From Anaerolineae bacterium (GTDB lineage: Bacteria > Chloroflexota > Anaerolineae > Aggregatilineales > Phototrophicaceae), in the NCBI GenBank assembly GCA_025454675.1, contig JALONZ010000001.1, positions 1 to 30,719 of the forward strand: a stretch of 30,719 nucleotides of DNA, read 5' to 3'. Of this stretch, positions 8,840 through 24,775 are shown in pieces; the first letter of the stretch is position 1; each line of letters begins with the position of its first letter. The position numbers and the translations under genes were made by a program. The notes beneath the pieces are model-generated. The model was given only the letters and a program-made list of their open reading frames with translations, had not been told where the DNA came from and searched no databases.

Positions 8840-9994
8840 TTAGGACAAATTGCTCACCAATTGGATGAACAAATAGGTGGGCAACGATAAAAATAGCATC
8901 CCTGTGATGATTTGTACCTGATTGGCAGTGAATCGTTTGAGTTTGAATAACCATTCGCCAAATGAATAGACGGCATACGCCAGCCAAATCATCTGAATGA
9001 TGAAGAGGGGCATAATTAATACGGCACGGTCAGCCCCAAAATAGACTAAGCCAAATAGTACATGGGTGGCATATGCGACCATCAATACAACCCCTATCAC
9101 AGGATACCACCGCGCCATGCGTGCTAATCCGAATATACTGAGGGTGGCACCAATAATGGTGAATTGGGTGATGCTCATGCCGATGAGGTTCATCCAACGT
9201 AACCCCTCACGCCAACCGTCCGCGATAAGATAGGGTGTGGTTAATCCAGATTGGTGTGCCAATAACGCGGATGTATGCCATAAATCGGGATTGATATACG
9301 AATTAACGATGCCATAAATACTGATACCTACAAGTATCAGCATGATTGTCCAGTACCAAATCGGGATTTTGGTTTGGGATAGCCATAGTCCCAATGCGAC
9401 AGCGGGCAATATTAACCCAAATAAGGGGTCATTGATGATGCCGATGCCCAAAAGTAGCAAAATTCCCATGTATTGTTGTGGCATGATAGGGGTTGGGGGC
9501 TTTTCATCGGGGCGTGGATTGCTTTTGAACAGTGCATCCATCAGCAAAAAGATGAGCCATGCCGTCATGAGTGAGGTGAGGCGTAAACTGCGCGGTGTGC
9601 CGATTTGACTCCAGAAAATAACTGCAAATATAACCACACCAATACCTAATGCCAGATAGGGGCGTTTTAGGAATTGAATGACAACAAGGCTCATCACCCC
9701 TGCGATAAGCATTGCCAAAACAATGGTGGCTGGCACAAAACTGGTTGCACCACCTGTTTGTGACCAAAATGCGGGTGATAATGCGAGTGATATACCGCCT
9801 AAACAGGCGATTATCGCCCCGAATCGGCGTATGGTGATGCTGACCCCCACGATAACCAATGCTAAACCACTGGCACGGACGAAAGGTGTTTGCCCAATGG
9901 TGATAAAGGTGAGCCAAATGAATGCACCCGCAACCAGTGCGGGCAACCAATAGATAATAAGTTGTCGTGAGGGCAGAATAGACCGTTGTTGCAC
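8840..9994 (-). CDS. Hypothetical polytopic membrane protein (~10-11 TM), C-terminal half resembles DUF2723/TMEM260 GT-C-like proteins
   Basis: 384 aa, GTG start 14 nt after the pbp2 stop, mostly hydrophobic. Family resemblance recognised by eye only. Confidence 0.75.
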   Translation of the reverse strand: MQQRSILPSRQLIIYWLPALVAGAFIWLTFITIGQTPFVRASGLALVIVGVSITIRRFGAIIACLGGISLALSPAFWSQTGGATSFVPATIVLAMLIAGVMSLVVIQFLKRPYLALGIGVVIFAVIFWSQIGTPRSLRLTSLMTAWLIFLLMDALFKSNPRPDEKPPTPIMPQQYMGILLLLGIGIINDPLFGLILPAVALGLWLSQTKIPIWYWTIMLILVGISIYGIVNSYINPDLWHTSALLAHQSGLTTPYLIADGWREGLRWMNLIGMSITQFTIIGATLSIFGLARMARWYPVIGVVLMVAYATHVLFGLVYFGADRAVLIMPLFIIQMIWLAYAVYSFGEWLFKLKRFTANQVQIITGMLFLSLPTYLFIQLVSNLS

Positions 9995-17277: not shown

Positions 17278-19506
17278 TTGCGAATCGTCTCTTTAATCAT
17301 TGTATTGGCAATTTTTATCGGGGGGATTGGCTTTTTTTTCTACCCTAACACATATGCCCAAGCCATCTGTACCGAAACAAGCGGGCGCACAGAACGCCCC
17401 AGTTATTATGCGGGTACAATTCAGACCAATATGGTCTATACCATTTATTTACCCCCATGTTATGACCAAACCACCAAAAATTACCCCGTAATTTATTTGA
17501 TGCACGGCTCGAATGATGATGATAATCACTGGATACGCTTGGGCTTGCAAACCTATTTGGATGAATCAATTTCGAGTGGCAACATCCCGCCAATGATTGT
17601 GGTGTTGCCATTTGGAAATTGGATTGCTAATGAAAACCGGTTCGGATTCGATTCATGGGGGGCGGTATTTTTAGACCAACTCATGCCATTGGCGGAAAGT
17701 AGCTATCGGATTGATGCCCGCAAAGAGACACGCGCCATTGGTGGCATTTCCAGAGGGGGGTTTTGGGCATATCAAATTGGGTTGCGCCGTCCGGATTTAT
17801 TTAGCGCCATTGGTGGACATAGCGCCTTTTTTGACCGATTTCATGCCCCTCCAGAAGCAAATCCGCTTGATTTGGCTTTATCTGCGCCCAATATCGAGAC
17901 GATGCGTTTGTGGCTGGATAGGGGGGCGAATGACTATGCCGCGCCCGGTTTGGATATTATGGATGAGCGCTTAAGCCAACGCGGTATTCCCTATACGTAT
18001 ATTATCCATCCTGAAGGTGAACATAATAACACTTATTGGTCGGCGCATGTGGCAGAATACATTCAATTTTATGCCGATAGCTTGGTTTTTTCACAATCGC
18101 CAGATGCGACACCTAGCCTAGATTTGGGTATATTACCCCCACAACCCGCCTTATTTGTCACCAATACACCACGTTCACCTGAACCAACGCCGATAGATTC
18201 ATCAGGTATGGCGTTATTTTTGCCTGTGGTAGCGTTCCCTAGTATTCAATCCAGCATCGAAAATTCGCGTTTAGTGACTATCCAATCGGGCTTGTTGGAT
18301 AATAATTTTGTGGTGAGCGATGCGGTTGCTAACCAGTTAGTGGCGTTAGGAGTTGAATTGCCAATAGGCACGACTATTATCCCTGCTGATAGGTTGTATA
18401 ATACGCTTTGGCGTGATACAGGCAAATTCACACTTTTGCCTTTTGACCAAATCACGCCACGTTATCGGGTGTTGATGGTGGATGAATTGCATCCACTTGA
18501 CCAATTAGACCGTTATCCGTTTGCGTTTTGGGATGGGGGTACACCCAATTTTTATCCATCACGGCTCACACGGGTGTTGATGACGGGCGTAACAGCACTC
18601 ACACGCGATACAACGATTGCGCTGGATAAAAATGGTACAGATTGGGCAGTTTCTGCTATTTTGCCGTATACCCAAAACGCTGATTTTTTTCATATTAGCA
18701 ATGAAGTATCGTTTGTGGCAGATTGTCCGCGTGTGGGGATGAGTACCTTTAATTTTTGTAGTAAGCCTGCTCATTTTGATATTTTAACGGCGTTGGATGT
18801 GGATATTGTCGAATTGAGTGGCAATCACAACAATGATTATGGCTATGAAGCCTATATAGAAACACTGAATTGGTATGCTGAAAATGGCATGTCGGTGATT
18901 GGTGGTGGGCGCACATTATCAGAAGCGCAAACCCCCTATATTTTTGAACACAATGACAACCAGATAGGGATGATTGCGTGTAATTGGGTGGGTCCGTATT
19001 ATGCGTTTGTGAATGAAAACCCGTCATTAACAGGTGGTGTGCGCCCTGGTGCCGCAGAATGTAACCGTACATGGTTAGCAGAAGCGATTCCCCAATTGGC
19101 GGGGGCGGTGGATGTGGTGATTGTGACGGTACAATATTTGGAACTTGACCAATATCAACCGAGCAATCAACAACGCGCCGATTTTCGCTGGTTAGCAGAA
19201 TTGGGGGCGGATGTGGTCATTGGCACACAAGCGCATTTTCCGCAGACAATCGAATTTTTTCCGCAGGATGCCACCCAAGAGGCATTCATTCATTATGGAT
19301 TGGGGAATTTTTTCTTTGACCAAGAATTTTTCGCGGGCAAACGCGCCTTTTTAAACCAACTTTTTATTTATGATGGGCGCTTGCAGTTTGTTGATTTATA
19401 CCCTATCCTAATTGAAGGGCAGGGGCAACCGCGCCCTATGACTGCTGATGAACGCTTGAACTTTTTGCATCTGCTCCTCATTCAAAATGGGAGTTTTTCG
19501 CCATGA
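17278..19506 (+). CDS. Secreted fusion: alpha/beta-hydrolase esterase (Fes/antigen-85-like) + linker + CapA/PGA_cap-like domain
   Basis: Signal peptide; 'YLMHG', nucleophile 'GGISRGG', 'GEHN' His; Pro/Thr linker; CapA-like 'LSGNHNNDYG', 'GADVVIG..AH.PQ', 'YGLGNFFFDQ'. TTG start, RBS AAGGA. Confidence 0.85.
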   Translation: MRIVSLIIVLAIFIGGIGFFFYPNTYAQAICTETSGRTERPSYYAGTIQTNMVYTIYLPPCYDQTTKNYPVIYLMHGSNDDDNHWIRLGLQTYLDESISSGNIPPMIVVLPFGNWIANENRFGFDSWGAVFLDQLMPLAESSYRIDARKETRAIGGISRGGFWAYQIGLRRPDLFSAIGGHSAFFDRFHAPPEANPLDLALSAPNIETMRLWLDRGANDYAAPGLDIMDERLSQRGIPYTYIIHPEGEHNNTYWSAHVAEYIQFYADSLVFSQSPDATPSLDLGILPPQPALFVTNTPRSPEPTPIDSSGMALFLPVVAFPSIQSSIENSRLVTIQSGLLDNNFVVSDAVANQLVALGVELPIGTTIIPADRLYNTLWRDTGKFTLLPFDQITPRYRVLMVDELHPLDQLDRYPFAFWDGGTPNFYPSRLTRVLMTGVTALTRDTTIALDKNGTDWAVSAILPYTQNADFFHISNEVSFVADCPRVGMSTFNFCSKPAHFDILTALDVDIVELSGNHNNDYGYEAYIETLNWYAENGMSVIGGGRTLSEAQTPYIFEHNDNQIGMIACNWVGPYYAFVNENPSLTGGVRPGAAECNRTWLAEAIPQLAGAVDVVIVTVQYLELDQYQPSNQQRADFRWLAELGADVVIGTQAHFPQTIEFFPQDATQEAFIHYGLGNFFFDQEFFAGKRAFLNQLFIYDGRLQFVDLYPILIEGQGQPRPMTADERLNFLHLLLIQNGSFSP

Positions 19507-21866: not shown

Positions 21867-21884
21867 GCGACTTGCCAGAGTCGC
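21867..21884. repeat. Short hairpin between GH3 and Clp genes
   Basis: GCGACT-TGCCAG-AGTCGC, 6-bp stem. No U-tract on +; TTTATC follows on the minus strand. Confidence 0.4.
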
Positions 21885-21938
21885 AAATTCACGTTAACTT
21901 TATATGCAGATGATTTCTTGAAGATAGATGGTGATATT

Positions 21939-24182
21939 ATGGGGACACTTAACCCAGATTTGCTTTCAAAAGATGCTGTTGTGGCATTAAATACTGCGGT
22001 TCAGTTCAAAAAACAATTCCGCAAAGATACCATTATGCCCGAATTGTTGTTATTAGCCTTATTGCGCCAAGAAAATACCGCCGCCCGCCGTTTATTGGAT
22101 ATTTTTAAGACCAATCGCGGGGTGGATTTGGAACGACTGGATAAACAAGTAGAGTTGGCGATTGAAAGTCGGCGCGACCAAAGCGGGAATTTAGATTTTG
22201 TGGCAACGGGCAATCAATCTGTGTCACTCTCACGCCAAACGATTATCCTGATTGATGATGCCCTTAGCCTTGCGAATTCACAAGATGAGGTGCGTGTAGA
22301 TACAGACCATCTCCTTGCGGTACTCAGTGAAAGCAGTATGAGTACAAGCGGGATTTTACGGCAACACGGCATCACACCTAAAGCCATACAAGATATCCTT
22401 TCGGATTATAGTAGCATTCGTCGCCGTCCCGATGGGACAACCCAAGATTTTGTGGCAGATGCCAAAGCGGGTACGCTGAAAGCGGTGCATTTCCGTGAGG
22501 ATTTGTTGCGGTATATCATCAATATCATTTCACAATCGGTCAAACGGCATGTGATTTTGGTGGGACCCGATGGTGTGGGCAAGCGCACCCTCGCATATAG
22601 TTTGGCGCTCCTGATGGCAGAAGGCAAAGGTCCCGCAGGTTTGACGAATTTGGTGCAAATTGATGAATCGGCACTGTTAGATAATGACCAAAAAGCAGTG
22701 CGTGCGGGGATGAGCAAAGCCACAGGTGGCATTTTATTTGTTGCCCATATTCATCGGTTTTTTGGCGGACCCATCAAGGCAGAATTTTCTAAAGCCACAC
22801 CGATGATTCAAAAAGCGTTTTTAGCGGATGACCCTGTGATTATCGCATCCACCACCGAGACAGAATATAACCAACGCTTGGCAGGCGTGAGCGCCATCAC
22901 CGAAAATAGTCAAATTGTGCGTGTGCCAGAACCATCCATCGAAGAAACGGTGGAAATGCTGAATATTCGCAAGCCTCATCTGGAAGCTGATTATGACATT
23001 GAAATTATCCCAGAGGCGCTCGCATTGGCGGCACGACTTGCGAAGCGATATATGGCGAAAACACCCCTCCCATTGAGTGCCGAACAATTGCTTCACCGTA
23101 CCGCCGCGATGGTGAATATGAGCAAGCAAGAAAATTTGGCATTCAAACCCGAAGCGCGTGACCATATTTTGGATGCAGAGGACATCACTTTCACCGCCAG
23201 CCAGATGACGGGTATCCCCGTGAATAAATTGGGTGAAGATGAACGCCTGCGTTATGCCAGCATGGATGAACACCTGAAAGAACGGATTATTGGTCAAGAT
23301 GTGGCGGTGGGGGCGGTCAGCCGTGCCATTAAAACGGCGCGGGTGGGGTTAAAGGATTCAAAACGCCCAATCGGTGCATTTTTATTTCTGGGTCCAACGG
23401 GTGTTGGTAAATCGGAATTGGCGAAGGCGCTGGCGGAATTTATGTTTGGCACAGAAGATGCCATGTTGCCCCTCGATATGTCCGAATTTAAGGATGAGTC
23501 GAGCCTGAATCGGTTGATTGGGTCGCCAAGTGGTTATGTGGATAGTGAAGCAGGCGGGCAACTCACAGAACGAGTACGCCAACAACCGTATATCATCGTA
23601 TTATTTGATGAGGTGGAAAAAGCACACCCACGCATTATGGATATTTTGCTTCAAGTGATTGAAGAGGGACGCTTGACGGATGGGCGCGGGAATCCGACCA
23701 ATTTTAGCGAGACGGTGATTATCCTCACCAGCAATTTGGGGTCAGAATCTCTGGCTGTGCCTGTGATTGATGATGATGCGCGTGAAGAAGCGATGGAAGA
23801 TGTTCGTACATGGTTCAGACCCGAATTTTTGAATCGGCTGGACGAAGTGATTATGTTCAACGCGCTGGATGAAGAAAATTTAGGCAGAATTTTGCGCTTA
23901 TTGCTCAAAAAAGAGAATAAGATGGCAGAAGAACGGGGCTTAAAATTGTCTTTCACAGATAAAGCGATTGCGTGGATGATGGGACAAAATGACGAACCCG
24001 AATATGGGGCGCGTCCGTTGCGCCGTATCATTCGCCGTAGTGTCCGTGAACCCCTCGCCGACTTTTTGCTCAAGACGAATCCACCCGTTGGGACAGAAGT
24101 GGTCATTGATTCCAACGCGGTGAGCGATGCCACGCTTGTTTTTAAGGCGTTGTATGATGGTAAAGAAGTGGCGATAGGATAA
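21939..24182 (+). CDS. Clp/Hsp100-family ATPase with degenerate first AAA+ module
   Basis: Double Clp-N repeat; intact D2 ('GPTGVGKSELAK', 'GYVD', 'LFDEVEKAHP', 'FRPEFLNRLD', 'GARPLRR'); D1 motifs altered. ATG at 21939 preferred over TTG at 21918. Confidence 0.9.
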   Translation: MGTLNPDLLSKDAVVALNTAVQFKKQFRKDTIMPELLLLALLRQENTAARRLLDIFKTNRGVDLERLDKQVELAIESRRDQSGNLDFVATGNQSVSLSRQTIILIDDALSLANSQDEVRVDTDHLLAVLSESSMSTSGILRQHGITPKAIQDILSDYSSIRRRPDGTTQDFVADAKAGTLKAVHFREDLLRYIINIISQSVKRHVILVGPDGVGKRTLAYSLALLMAEGKGPAGLTNLVQIDESALLDNDQKAVRAGMSKATGGILFVAHIHRFFGGPIKAEFSKATPMIQKAFLADDPVIIASTTETEYNQRLAGVSAITENSQIVRVPEPSIEETVEMLNIRKPHLEADYDIEIIPEALALAARLAKRYMAKTPLPLSAEQLLHRTAAMVNMSKQENLAFKPEARDHILDAEDITFTASQMTGIPVNKLGEDERLRYASMDEHLKERIIGQDVAVGAVSRAIKTARVGLKDSKRPIGAFLFLGPTGVGKSELAKALAEFMFGTEDAMLPLDMSEFKDESSLNRLIGSPSGYVDSEAGGQLTERVRQQPYIIVLFDEVEKAHPRIMDILLQVIEEGRLTDGRGNPTNFSETVIILTSNLGSESLAVPVIDDDAREEAMEDVRTWFRPEFLNRLDEVIMFNALDEENLGRILRLLLKKENKMAEERGLKLSFTDKAIAWMMGQNDEPEYGARPLRRIIRRSVREPLADFLLKTNPPVGTEVVIDSNAVSDATLVFKALYDGKEVAIG

Positions 24183-24184
24183 GT

Positions 24185-24775
24185 TTGGTGGACGATAAGG
24201 TTAATAAGACGCACGCTAGTCGCCCATTTCCAAAACGCCCAGATGATGGCTATTCGGCTTGGCAAGCGACAATGGGTTATATCAATATGCACCACAGCCC
24301 TGATGCGTTGCTTCAAGTGGAAGCCTATTCGCAACATGCGAAAGTATTTTGGGGTGCATCTGTATCATGGGCGGATAATCGAGAAGCTGTTGATAATTGT
24401 TTGTCGTTGCCCATCGCATTGCATGATTTATGGATGCAAGTGGAGAGGCAGTATCGCATTTTTAATAATCCAGCCGATGCGTTGCGCCGTCCATTTGGGT
24501 ATAAGGATGATGAATGGTTTGATGATGCCACACTCGATATTTTGCATCGGCTGATTCATACTACCCAAAGTGTTTTTGGTGATGATTGGCGCATTTTATG
24601 GATTTATCAACCATCCGAAACACCCGAAATGCGTGTACAAATGCGAATGCTCGCTGATAACATGAATCGTCATGCGGGTGGGCGTGGCGCAAGTTTATTA
24701 GATGCAGGGCGCGAATTATTTCGGAATGCCGCGCCTATTTACCAAGCCTTTTTAGAATCTCGTGATAACTCATAG
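24185..24775 (+). CDS. Hypothetical soluble protein, 196 aa, coupled to the Clp gene
   Basis: Starts 2 nt after the Clp stop, RBS AGGA, fills the gap to pmm exactly. No family recognised. Confidence 0.75.
   Translation: MVDDKVNKTHASRPFPKRPDDGYSAWQATMGYINMHHSPDALLQVEAYSQHAKVFWGASVSWADNREAVDNCLSLPIALHDLWMQVERQYRIFNNPADALRRPFGYKDDEWFDDATLDILHRLIHTTQSVFGDDWRILWIYQPSETPEMRVQMRMLADNMNRHAGGRGASLLDAGRELFRNAAPIYQAFLESRDNS

Follow-up and report, generated by a model that had tools for sequence, protein, structure and literature searches.

The window analysed here is a stretch of 30,719 nucleotides (contig JALONZ010000001.1) from a metagenome-assembled genome (MAG) of an Anaerolineae bacterium that is 63% complete. 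At 21939..24182 on its plus strand lies a gene for a Clp/Hsp100 paralogue whose first AAA+ module, D1, is a predicted pseudo-ATPase, as recognised by translation, alignment and profile searches. The gene encodes a product of 747 residues followed by a stop codon, with no internal stops. We placed its start at the ATG at 21939, which is preceded at a distance of 5 nt by a Shine-Dalgarno-like GGTGAT site, and the N-termini of orthologues read MGT/MKT-LNPDL. The layout of the product is Clp N-domain, D1 AAA+ module, 24-residue linker, D2 and D2-small domain, and family members are annotated at source as ClpC, ClpA, ClpB or hypothetical protein. The N-domain (residues 1-156, 21939..22406) consists of two four-helix repeats separated by a predicted beta-hairpin at residues 82-98. 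Only the first of these matched the Pfam family Clp_N (PF02861, residues 20-74, E=4.7e-9); the second is backed by a full-length alignment to the ClpA hidden Markov model (HMM) and by the prediction of its four helices. An initial sequence-only reading of this locus had described the double Clp-N domain as intact, and both repeats were indeed supported, although Pfam scores the first alone. The alignments of the ClpA HMM and of M. tuberculosis ClpB to the protein begin at residues 12-15. Further Pfam matches were to AAA_lid_9 (PF17871, residues 333-403, E=6e-10), AAA_2 (PF07724, residues 476-637, E=2e-57) and ClpB_D2-small (PF10431, residues 643-721, E=1.3e-18), and the D1 large subdomain gave only weak, generic P-loop matches, mostly under curated cut-offs.

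We aligned the protein with ClpA and ClpB of E. coli (NC_000913.3) and with the three canonical Clp paralogues that this genome also encodes. The D1 large subdomain (residues 165-330, 22431..22928) retains the AAA+ alpha/beta fold, as judged by AlphaFold2 and by dN/dS, the ratio of nonsynonymous to synonymous substitution rates, and its catalytic motifs are all gone. Within the P-loop GPDGVGKRT (residues 209-217, 22563..22589), Walker A reads GVGKRT (residues 212-217) for canonical GxxGVGK-T-A, with R216 replacing the Mg-binding Thr/Ser. The region of pore loop 1 reads IDESALLDNDQKAV (residues 241-254) and shows a clean 9-residue gap at KYRGEFEER. The deletion site LLDNDQ-KAV (residues 246-254, 22674..22700) is a gap in every aligned family member, and a family motif A-L-L-D stands in for S-L-V-A-G-x-K-Y-R-G. 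Walker B is degenerate, reading ILFVAHIH (residues 265-272) with A269/H270 in place of the D/E of canonical ILFIDE; together with the IH-RFFGG motif that follows it in the pore-loop-2 region, which is specific to the family and contains F274/F275, it occupies 22731..22769. The arginine fingers are lost at 22890..22910, where SAITENS aligns with (D/E)xALERRF and residues E322/N323 of TENS (residues 321-324) replace the RR of ALERRF. In the small (lid) subdomain of D1 (residues 331-394, 22929..23120; PF17871 and alignments), LPLSA is found for LPDKA at 23064-23081 (PLSA, residues 378-381), and the family-specific R387 also sits in this lid. Every D1 motif string quoted in the sequence-only reading was present in the translation at the place given. 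With GKRT, AH, EN and the 9-residue deletion, D1 does not qualify as catalytically competent.

D1 is followed by a linker of 24 residues (395-418, 23121..23192), identified by alignment and AlphaFold2, at the position of the M-domain of ClpB and ClpC. This linker is short like that of ClpA, and ClpB carries ~120 residues more. It is mostly without regular predicted structure, a helix at residues 413-424 starting at its C-terminal end. The D2 large subdomain (23259..23858; PF07724) is intact, with invariant motif columns and 44-48% identity to the D2 of ClpB and ClpC. The alignment located Walker A, GPTGVGKS, at 23391-23414, the pore loop carrying Tyr533 at 23520-23561 and Walker B, D557/E558, at 23595-23618; sensor-1 N599 and arginine finger R633 are likewise retained, and the D2 small domain (residues 643-721, 23865..24101; PF10431) has the sensor-2 motif GARPLRR. 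Sensor-1 lies in ILTSNLGS (residues 595-602). The segment that follows it, TSNLG-SESLAVPVIDDDAREEAMEDVRTW (23727..23813), occupies the position of the ClpP-docking loop of ClpA, ClpC and ClpX in the alignments. The docking tripeptide [ILVM]G[FL] is absent after TSNLG in this protein, at a place where E. coli ClpA has IGL and the paralogues of the same genome have IGF, LGF and LGF. These alignments bear out the initial description of a protein with an intact D2 and with neither an M-domain nor an IGF/IGL loop.

An AlphaFold2 model built from a 40-sequence alignment had a mean predicted local distance difference test (pLDDT) score of 85.9. It contained an N-domain of eight helices, its two repeats separated by a beta-hairpin (pLDDT 80-95), and a D1 core of five strands (204-208, 238-241, 265-268, 300-305 and 324-328; pLDDT mostly 81-94). 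Residues 395-412 were modelled without a helix or coiled coil (pLDDT 56-69), D2 was canonical, and the ClpP-loop position was a short coil running into helix 612-625, with no protruding loop. When the model was compared with the PDB using Foldseek, only chains of ClpC, ClpB, ClpA and Hsp104 appeared among the 50 best matches listed.

The D1 losses are not private to this genome. A word-indexed search with residues 1-440 returned >1000 matches, the best 120 of which all had at least 70% identity over the N-domain and D1 half and carried the source names Anaerolineae, Chloroflexota or 'Phototrophicales'. When 1.84 billion cluster representatives were searched exhaustively with HMMER, distant full-length members with 30-47% identity were added. 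The same losses were common to all orthologues and distant members, down to 27-30% identity in the N-domain and D1 half and including GxGRRS variants. Across the family Walker A follows the pattern G..G.G[KR][RQ][ST] and the sensor-2 position reads LP.[SA]A, the arginine fingers are missing throughout, and Walker B follows hhhh[PA][HDNF] with the consensus P-H or P-D. The replacement of the Walker B DE, first noted as AH, is therefore general, but AH itself is a local variant. D2 was canonical in every member aligned, with invariant motif columns, and no member aligned had the [ILVM]G[FL] tripeptide. The segment after TSNLG varies in sequence and length across the family and is entirely deleted in two members (P0138 and P0165).

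We estimated selection by the Nei-Gojobori method, comparing the window with three orthologues of the same genus. The approximate dN/dS values were 0.04-0.08 for the D1 large subdomain, 0.05-0.07 for D2 and 0.03-0.08 for the N-domain, in agreement with the expectation of the sequence-only reading that the ratio among orthologues would be below 1. In more distant orthologues, dN of the D1 large subdomain (0.14-0.20) was no higher than that of D2 (0.15-0.18) and lower than that of the N-domain and of the lid. In a set of 14 diverse members, conservation was 100% for the P-loop glycines G209/G212/G214, 93% for each of R216, F274, F275 and Y352, and 86% for R387; the canonical consensus at these last five positions is T, I/V, I/V, H and E, respectively. 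Because the losses are shared, dN/dS is low, and the P-loop glycines, R216 and RFFGG are conserved in the family, these comparisons argue that D1 is a selected pseudo-ATPase with a signature of its own rather than a decaying module. D1 had initially been called structural. By its motifs it is indeed non-catalytic, but a purely structural role is probably too weak a description of a module in which the P-loop glycines, K215 and R216 are conserved.

The dead-D1 proteins formed one clade (support 96/75) in a maximum-likelihood tree built from D2 columns only, so that the clade is independent of the D1 trait that defines the family. The clade, which splits into two well-supported subclades, joins ClpA, ClpB and the ClpC-like paralogues in a polytomy. 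By this tree the family arose once, long ago. A single copy was found in 273 of the 301 sampled species of the order Aggregatilineales, and in 219 of 232 among high-quality genomes. It is present in seven of the eight families of the order, with 0/24 genomes positive in the remaining family, and an even sample of the phylum yielded it in 6/401 genomes only. This is the distribution of a lineage-specific paralogue, as had been proposed: nearly every genome of one order has the gene, in a single copy, and few genomes elsewhere in the phylum have it. Aggregatilineales are filamentous Chloroflexota; the carriers include one isolate genome (CP146238.1), and carrier MAGs were recovered from bioreactors, from wetlands and from other sediments or mats. 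Three further MAG contigs labelled Bacteroidetes, Oceanobacillus sp. and Pleurocapsa sp. (L081, L086 and L107) carry an Aggregatilineales-type gene with 68-72% identity to that of the window, and these contigs are probably mis-binned or mislabelled.

Besides this gene, the window genome has genes for one ClpP and for three canonical Clp ATPases, which carry IGF/LGF loops. Two relatives from the genus, each 99% complete, share this set of four Clp/Hsp100 genes, without a ClpB among them, and in complete relatives the gene is always accompanied by two or three canonical Clp/Hsp100 paralogues. Full-length ClpB was not found in any of three genomes of the genus that are 98-99% complete (G569, G570 and G580; 0/3). 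Across the order its occurrence is patchy: it was present in 202/301 genomes, including 133/179 of the window's family, and not found in the other 99/301, about a third. Failures to find it were confined to some genera, the window's own being one of them. We considered whether the gene is a replacement for ClpB and rejected this, because the two coexist in most genomes of the order (202/301).

Two further groups of Clp/Hsp100 proteins came to light in metagenomic data. In six (P0196, P0209, P0210, P0250, P0260 and P0272) both Walker A and both Walker B motifs are intact, the D1-D2 linker has 29-43 residues and there is no [ILVM]G[FL] loop; by these motifs they are double-ring Clp proteins without M-domain or docking loop and with a live D1, another uncharacterised architecture. 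The second group is a short subclade of the dead-D1 family itself, with 690-708 residues, in which the ClpP-loop region is deleted (P0276 at L119 2869-5908 and P0138 at L121 636-3799). On both metagenome contigs the Clp gene overlaps a ~330-residue gene with a partial N6-adenine methyltransferase motif, which is 33% identical between L119 and L121; it follows Clp in one locus and precedes it in the other. ParB-, HTH- and ParA-like genes are found nearby, and the Clp gene with its ~330-residue partner may represent a mobile-element or defence-like two-gene module.

To place the family among characterised Clp proteins we used the NCBIfam models, whose cut-offs are 993 bits for ClpA (TIGR02639), 1232 for ClpB (TIGR03346), 885 for ClpV (TIGR03345) and 1900 for ClpG (NF033607) and ClpK (NF033606). 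The window protein scored 409 bits against ClpA, 497 against ClpB, 360 against ClpV, and 359 and 348 against ClpG/ClpK, all far under these cut-offs. The ClpA model was colinear with the protein (residues 12-723 to model positions 4-732), and the ClpB, ClpV, ClpG and ClpK models matched in two pieces, the better of which lay over D2. The protein resembles E. coli ClpA in its order of N-domain, D1, short linker, D2 and D2-small and in having no M-domain. However, the D1 of ClpA is active, with a Tyr pore loop and arginine fingers, ClpA has an IGL loop, and the dead-D1 family did not group with ClpA on the D2 tree. In sequence its D2 is closest to that of ClpB (E ~1e-92 over the D2 stretch), and it shares with ClpB/Hsp104 the absence of a ClpP loop, but it lacks the coiled-coil M-domain of ~120 residues, and its D1 is dead. 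In ClpB the M-domain mediates coupling to DnaK. The protein also differs from ClpC, which has a short M-domain (the MecA/McsB site) and a [VLI]GF loop; the ClpC-like paralogues of the same genome, P0123 and P0124, carry both. From ClpV/TssH it is distinguished by its score and by the absence of type VI secretion genes nearby, and from ClpG/ClpK, which have an extended N-terminal region and an M-domain, by its score.

ClpI of Actinomycetota is a lineage-restricted third class of double-ring Clp unfoldases that was found by bioinformatics; as described, one subclass is without LGF, the ATPase modules of both rings are intact and the M-domain is of ClpC length (PMC10149685). On that account ClpI is set apart from the window family, in which D1 is dead and no M-domain is present, and the initial reading, which a match to a characterised family would have refuted, was contradicted on this point neither by ClpI nor by the NCBIfam scores. 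The apicoplast ClpM of Plasmodium is described as a ClpC-type protein that lacks a ClpP-binding site and has a D1 devoid of canonical Walker motifs, both A and B (bioRxiv 10.64898/2026.05.20.726455). ClpM, with the same pair of losses, is the nearest described parallel, but it is plastid-encoded, eukaryotic and of a different lineage. Common descent of ClpM and the dead-D1 family is unlikely, and we regard ClpM as a convergent case. One non-hydrolysing ring is also found in other type II AAA+ proteins, namely D2 of NSF and D1 of Pex1/Pex6, in which the other tier does the mechanical work while the non-hydrolysing one serves assembly, by binding nucleotide or as a purely structural element, and human CLPB/Skd3 is a stand-alone disaggregase with a lone module of the ClpB-D2 type. 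All of these come from other families, with other domain contexts: the P-loop of NSF D2 is a canonical GK[ST] where the window family has GKR[ST], and Skd3 chains matched only D2 of the window protein. A feature search of the ESM Atlas with D1 returned generic AAA clusters only. PADLOC matches were to generic D2-type AAA modules, and membership of a defence system was rejected on that ground. No description of this bacterial family was found in full-text literature searches or among curated family models. It is thus a well-defined and apparently undescribed Clp/Hsp100 subfamily, which we name here 'GKR[ST]' or dead-D1 Clp.

Taken together, these features make it reasonably likely, though far from certain, that the protein is a D2-driven, hexameric, stand-alone unfoldase or remodeller with a pseudo-ATPase D1, operating independently of ClpP and DnaK. 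The suggested independence from both partners follows from the absence of the corresponding motifs across the family. The protein would assemble into a two-tier hexamer in which the N-domains would choose substrates and the D1 tier would form a non-hydrolysing collar that stabilises or gates the ring. D1 probably still binds a nucleotide or another phosphate ligand, as the conservation of the P-loop glycines, K215 and the family-specific R216 points to retained ligand binding. The D2 tier alone would hydrolyse ATP and thread the polypeptide through its Tyr533 pore loops. Lacking an M-domain as well as a ClpP-docking tripeptide, the protein would act alone, neither as a ClpP activator nor as a DnaK-coupled disaggregase. 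With one ClpP and three IGF/LGF Clp ATPases in the genome, ClpP-partner roles are already filled. A motor driven by D2 only is mechanically plausible because in ClpA D2 does 80-90% of the hydrolysis and is the principal unfoldase and translocase, D1 being auxiliary (PMC7568338). If this reading is right, source annotations as ClpC, ClpA or ClpB imply partners that the protein probably does not have.

Double-ring Hsp100/Clp proteins are a main model for the division of labour between AAA+ rings, which has mostly been studied with engineered Walker-B and pore-loop mutants. The family described here is the evolutionary counterpart of that mutant experiment: its D1 has long been dead and loop-less, yet is constrained like the working D2, and the family has neither of the known coupling devices, M-domain and ClpP loop. 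It would reveal what a D1 tier contributes when it does not hydrolyse ATP, whether the ring of D2 suffices by itself as a natural unfoldase, and what ligand the GKR[ST] P-loop accepts. For AAA+ specialists the interest is that of a putative natural single-motor Hsp100, a function that, beyond its motifs, we infer from sequence.

Several observations weigh against a D2-driven stand-alone remodeller. The segment after TSNLG aligns to the IGL region of E. coli ClpA (AVPVI against SIGLI), the helix downstream resembles that of ClpA (DAMEE against EAMED), and a Pro-hydrophobic-Leu/Ile sequence is common there in the family (AVPVI, SVPYL, DKPML, EDPVL); the segment may therefore contain an unconventional ClpP-docking element. 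In ClpB and ClpA, nucleotide-dependent contacts between D1 modules drive assembly. Loss of the trans-acting arginines removes these contacts, and formation of the hexamer may need something else. The dN/dS ratios come from comparisons with dS ~1, near saturation, and are approximate though far below 1. No conserved partner gene pointing to a substrate was found across the family, as the neighbours of the gene differ in L028, L033, L034 and L120. Finally, the sequence was found in two DNA metagenome runs only, and no RNA run with the gene was found.

A tentative extension of the stand-alone reading, which we hold to be possible rather than probable, is that D1 is a ligand-sensing regulatory tier. 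Its P-loop, K215, Arg216 and Arg387 would bind a nucleotide or another phosphate ligand without Mg2+ or hydrolysis and so gate the assembly or activity of the D2 motor, with F274/F275 forming a passive pore collar in place of the tyrosine loop. Such a regulatory D1 tier would, if true, be a new allosteric design in Hsp100 and would make the protein a natural minimal single-motor unfoldase.

Other explanations assign the protein a partner. Dead paralogues that retain their fold and interfaces often regulate live partners, and the protein might be a regulatory pseudo-enzyme subunit that forms mixed hexamers with, or caps, a canonical ClpC/ClpA-like paralogue, in the manner of ClpR in ClpP/R or of Pex1/Pex6. 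The two or three canonical paralogues that always coexist with it in complete relatives and the conservation of D1 interface residues are consistent with this. However, D2 is fully catalytic, and its own arginine finger and pore loop would be superfluous in a pure regulator; conservation of the N-domain resembles that in Clp proteins which select substrates, and the gene adjoins no Clp paralogue. We consider such a role unlikely. It is also rather improbable that the protein is a specialised degradation unfoldase that docks ClpP by non-canonical means, whether through the Pro-containing segment that follows TSNLG or through another surface. The genome encodes ClpP, the segment and the helix after it align with those of ClpA as described above, and P-hydrophobic-[LI] recurs in many members; but the [ILVM]G[FL] tripeptide occurs in none of them, the segment is variable and is wholly deleted in P0138 and P0165, the modelled coil runs straight into a helix without forming a protruding helix-loop-helix, and three IGF/LGF paralogues are already available to ClpP.

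The genomic setting raises a further possibility, that the protein serves the cell envelope or cell shape by remodelling a client encoded nearby, such as MreB, a GlmM-like mutase or a NagZ-like GH3 protein. Several families of the order keep parts of the gene order, with the gene by mreBCD-PBP2, tilS, an OmpR-type regulator, GH3 and PGM/PMM genes; an inversion in L031 has left this neighbourhood together, and L030 has an MreB paralogue 1 kb downstream. However, common descent and one inversion explain this synteny, which is absent in L028 of the same order, L033 of the same class and L034/L120 of a distant clade. The gene has a promoter-like element of its own, and across the family none of its neighbours shows translational coupling to it; a dedicated envelope role is thus very unlikely. 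The last alternative, a decaying ClpA/ClpC duplicate whose D1 is drifting to loss, would account for the disappearance of every D1 catalytic motif, but its probability is practically nil, as it is refuted by the distribution of the gene (one copy with an intact frame in each of hundreds of genomes, which upholds the original argument against decay), by a dN/dS of ~0.05 with a D1 large subdomain as conserved as D2, by the single old origin on the D2 tree and by the family-specific invariant residues.

The promoter-like element is a block at 21872..21905 on the plus strand that reads TTGCCA, 17 nt, TAACTT and is shared upstream of 12 orthologues. In orthologues at family level it reads CTTGyC (CTTGTC), a spacer of ~17 nt and a TTTCAGGTTAACTTA core. 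It lies 40-65 nt 5' of the ATG in the 12 orthologues despite saturated synonymous sites. The motif occurred once per genome, solely before this gene, in G560 and G581; the same pattern did not find it in G418, and a consensus promoter scanner made no call on the block. The block is best read as the gene's own putative promoter. We rejected a heat-shock or other regulon acting through this motif, as it occurs once per genome and only before this gene. A hairpin with a 6-bp stem, GCGACT-TGCCAG-AGTCGC (21867-21884), overlaps the block.

The neighbours in the window are housekeeping genes, with no type VI secretion genes and no adjacent Clp paralogue. On the minus strand lie mreB-mreC-mreD-PBP2, minC, minD and rodA. 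The plus strand carries, 5' of Clp, tilS, an OmpR-type regulator, an esterase+PGA_cap fusion, a small membrane protein and a GH3 gene, and, 3' of it, a 196-residue protein, a PGM/PMM gene, a methyltransferase and purK-purE. The sequence-only reading had suggested a link between the Clp protein and the 196-residue protein (24185-24775, plus strand), which has no Pfam match and begins 2 nt past the Clp stop. This link did not hold up. In L008 the PGM/PMM (GlmM-like) protein carries a homologue of the 196-residue protein at its N-terminus, as a fusion of 671 residues, and in L009 the homologue overlaps the start of the PGM/PMM gene, with two genes lying between it and Clp. Because it is fused to the PGM/PMM gene in one genome and adjoins it in another, the 196-residue protein belongs with that gene, and the arrangement suggests that it is an accessory domain of the mutase or a partner to it. 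A role as Clp adaptor or substrate is not supported. Elsewhere in the window, an open reading frame of 384 residues with no Pfam match (8840-9994, minus strand) lies between the PBP2 gene and minC in the mre/min/rodA cluster. In the 742-residue product of the esterase+PGA_cap fusion (17278-19506, plus strand), a putative esterase (PF00756) is joined to a PGA_cap/CapA-like domain (PF09587). The fusion is conserved at the same place in L008 and L009, and clusters with the GH3 (NagZ-like) and GlmM-like genes beside mreBCD.

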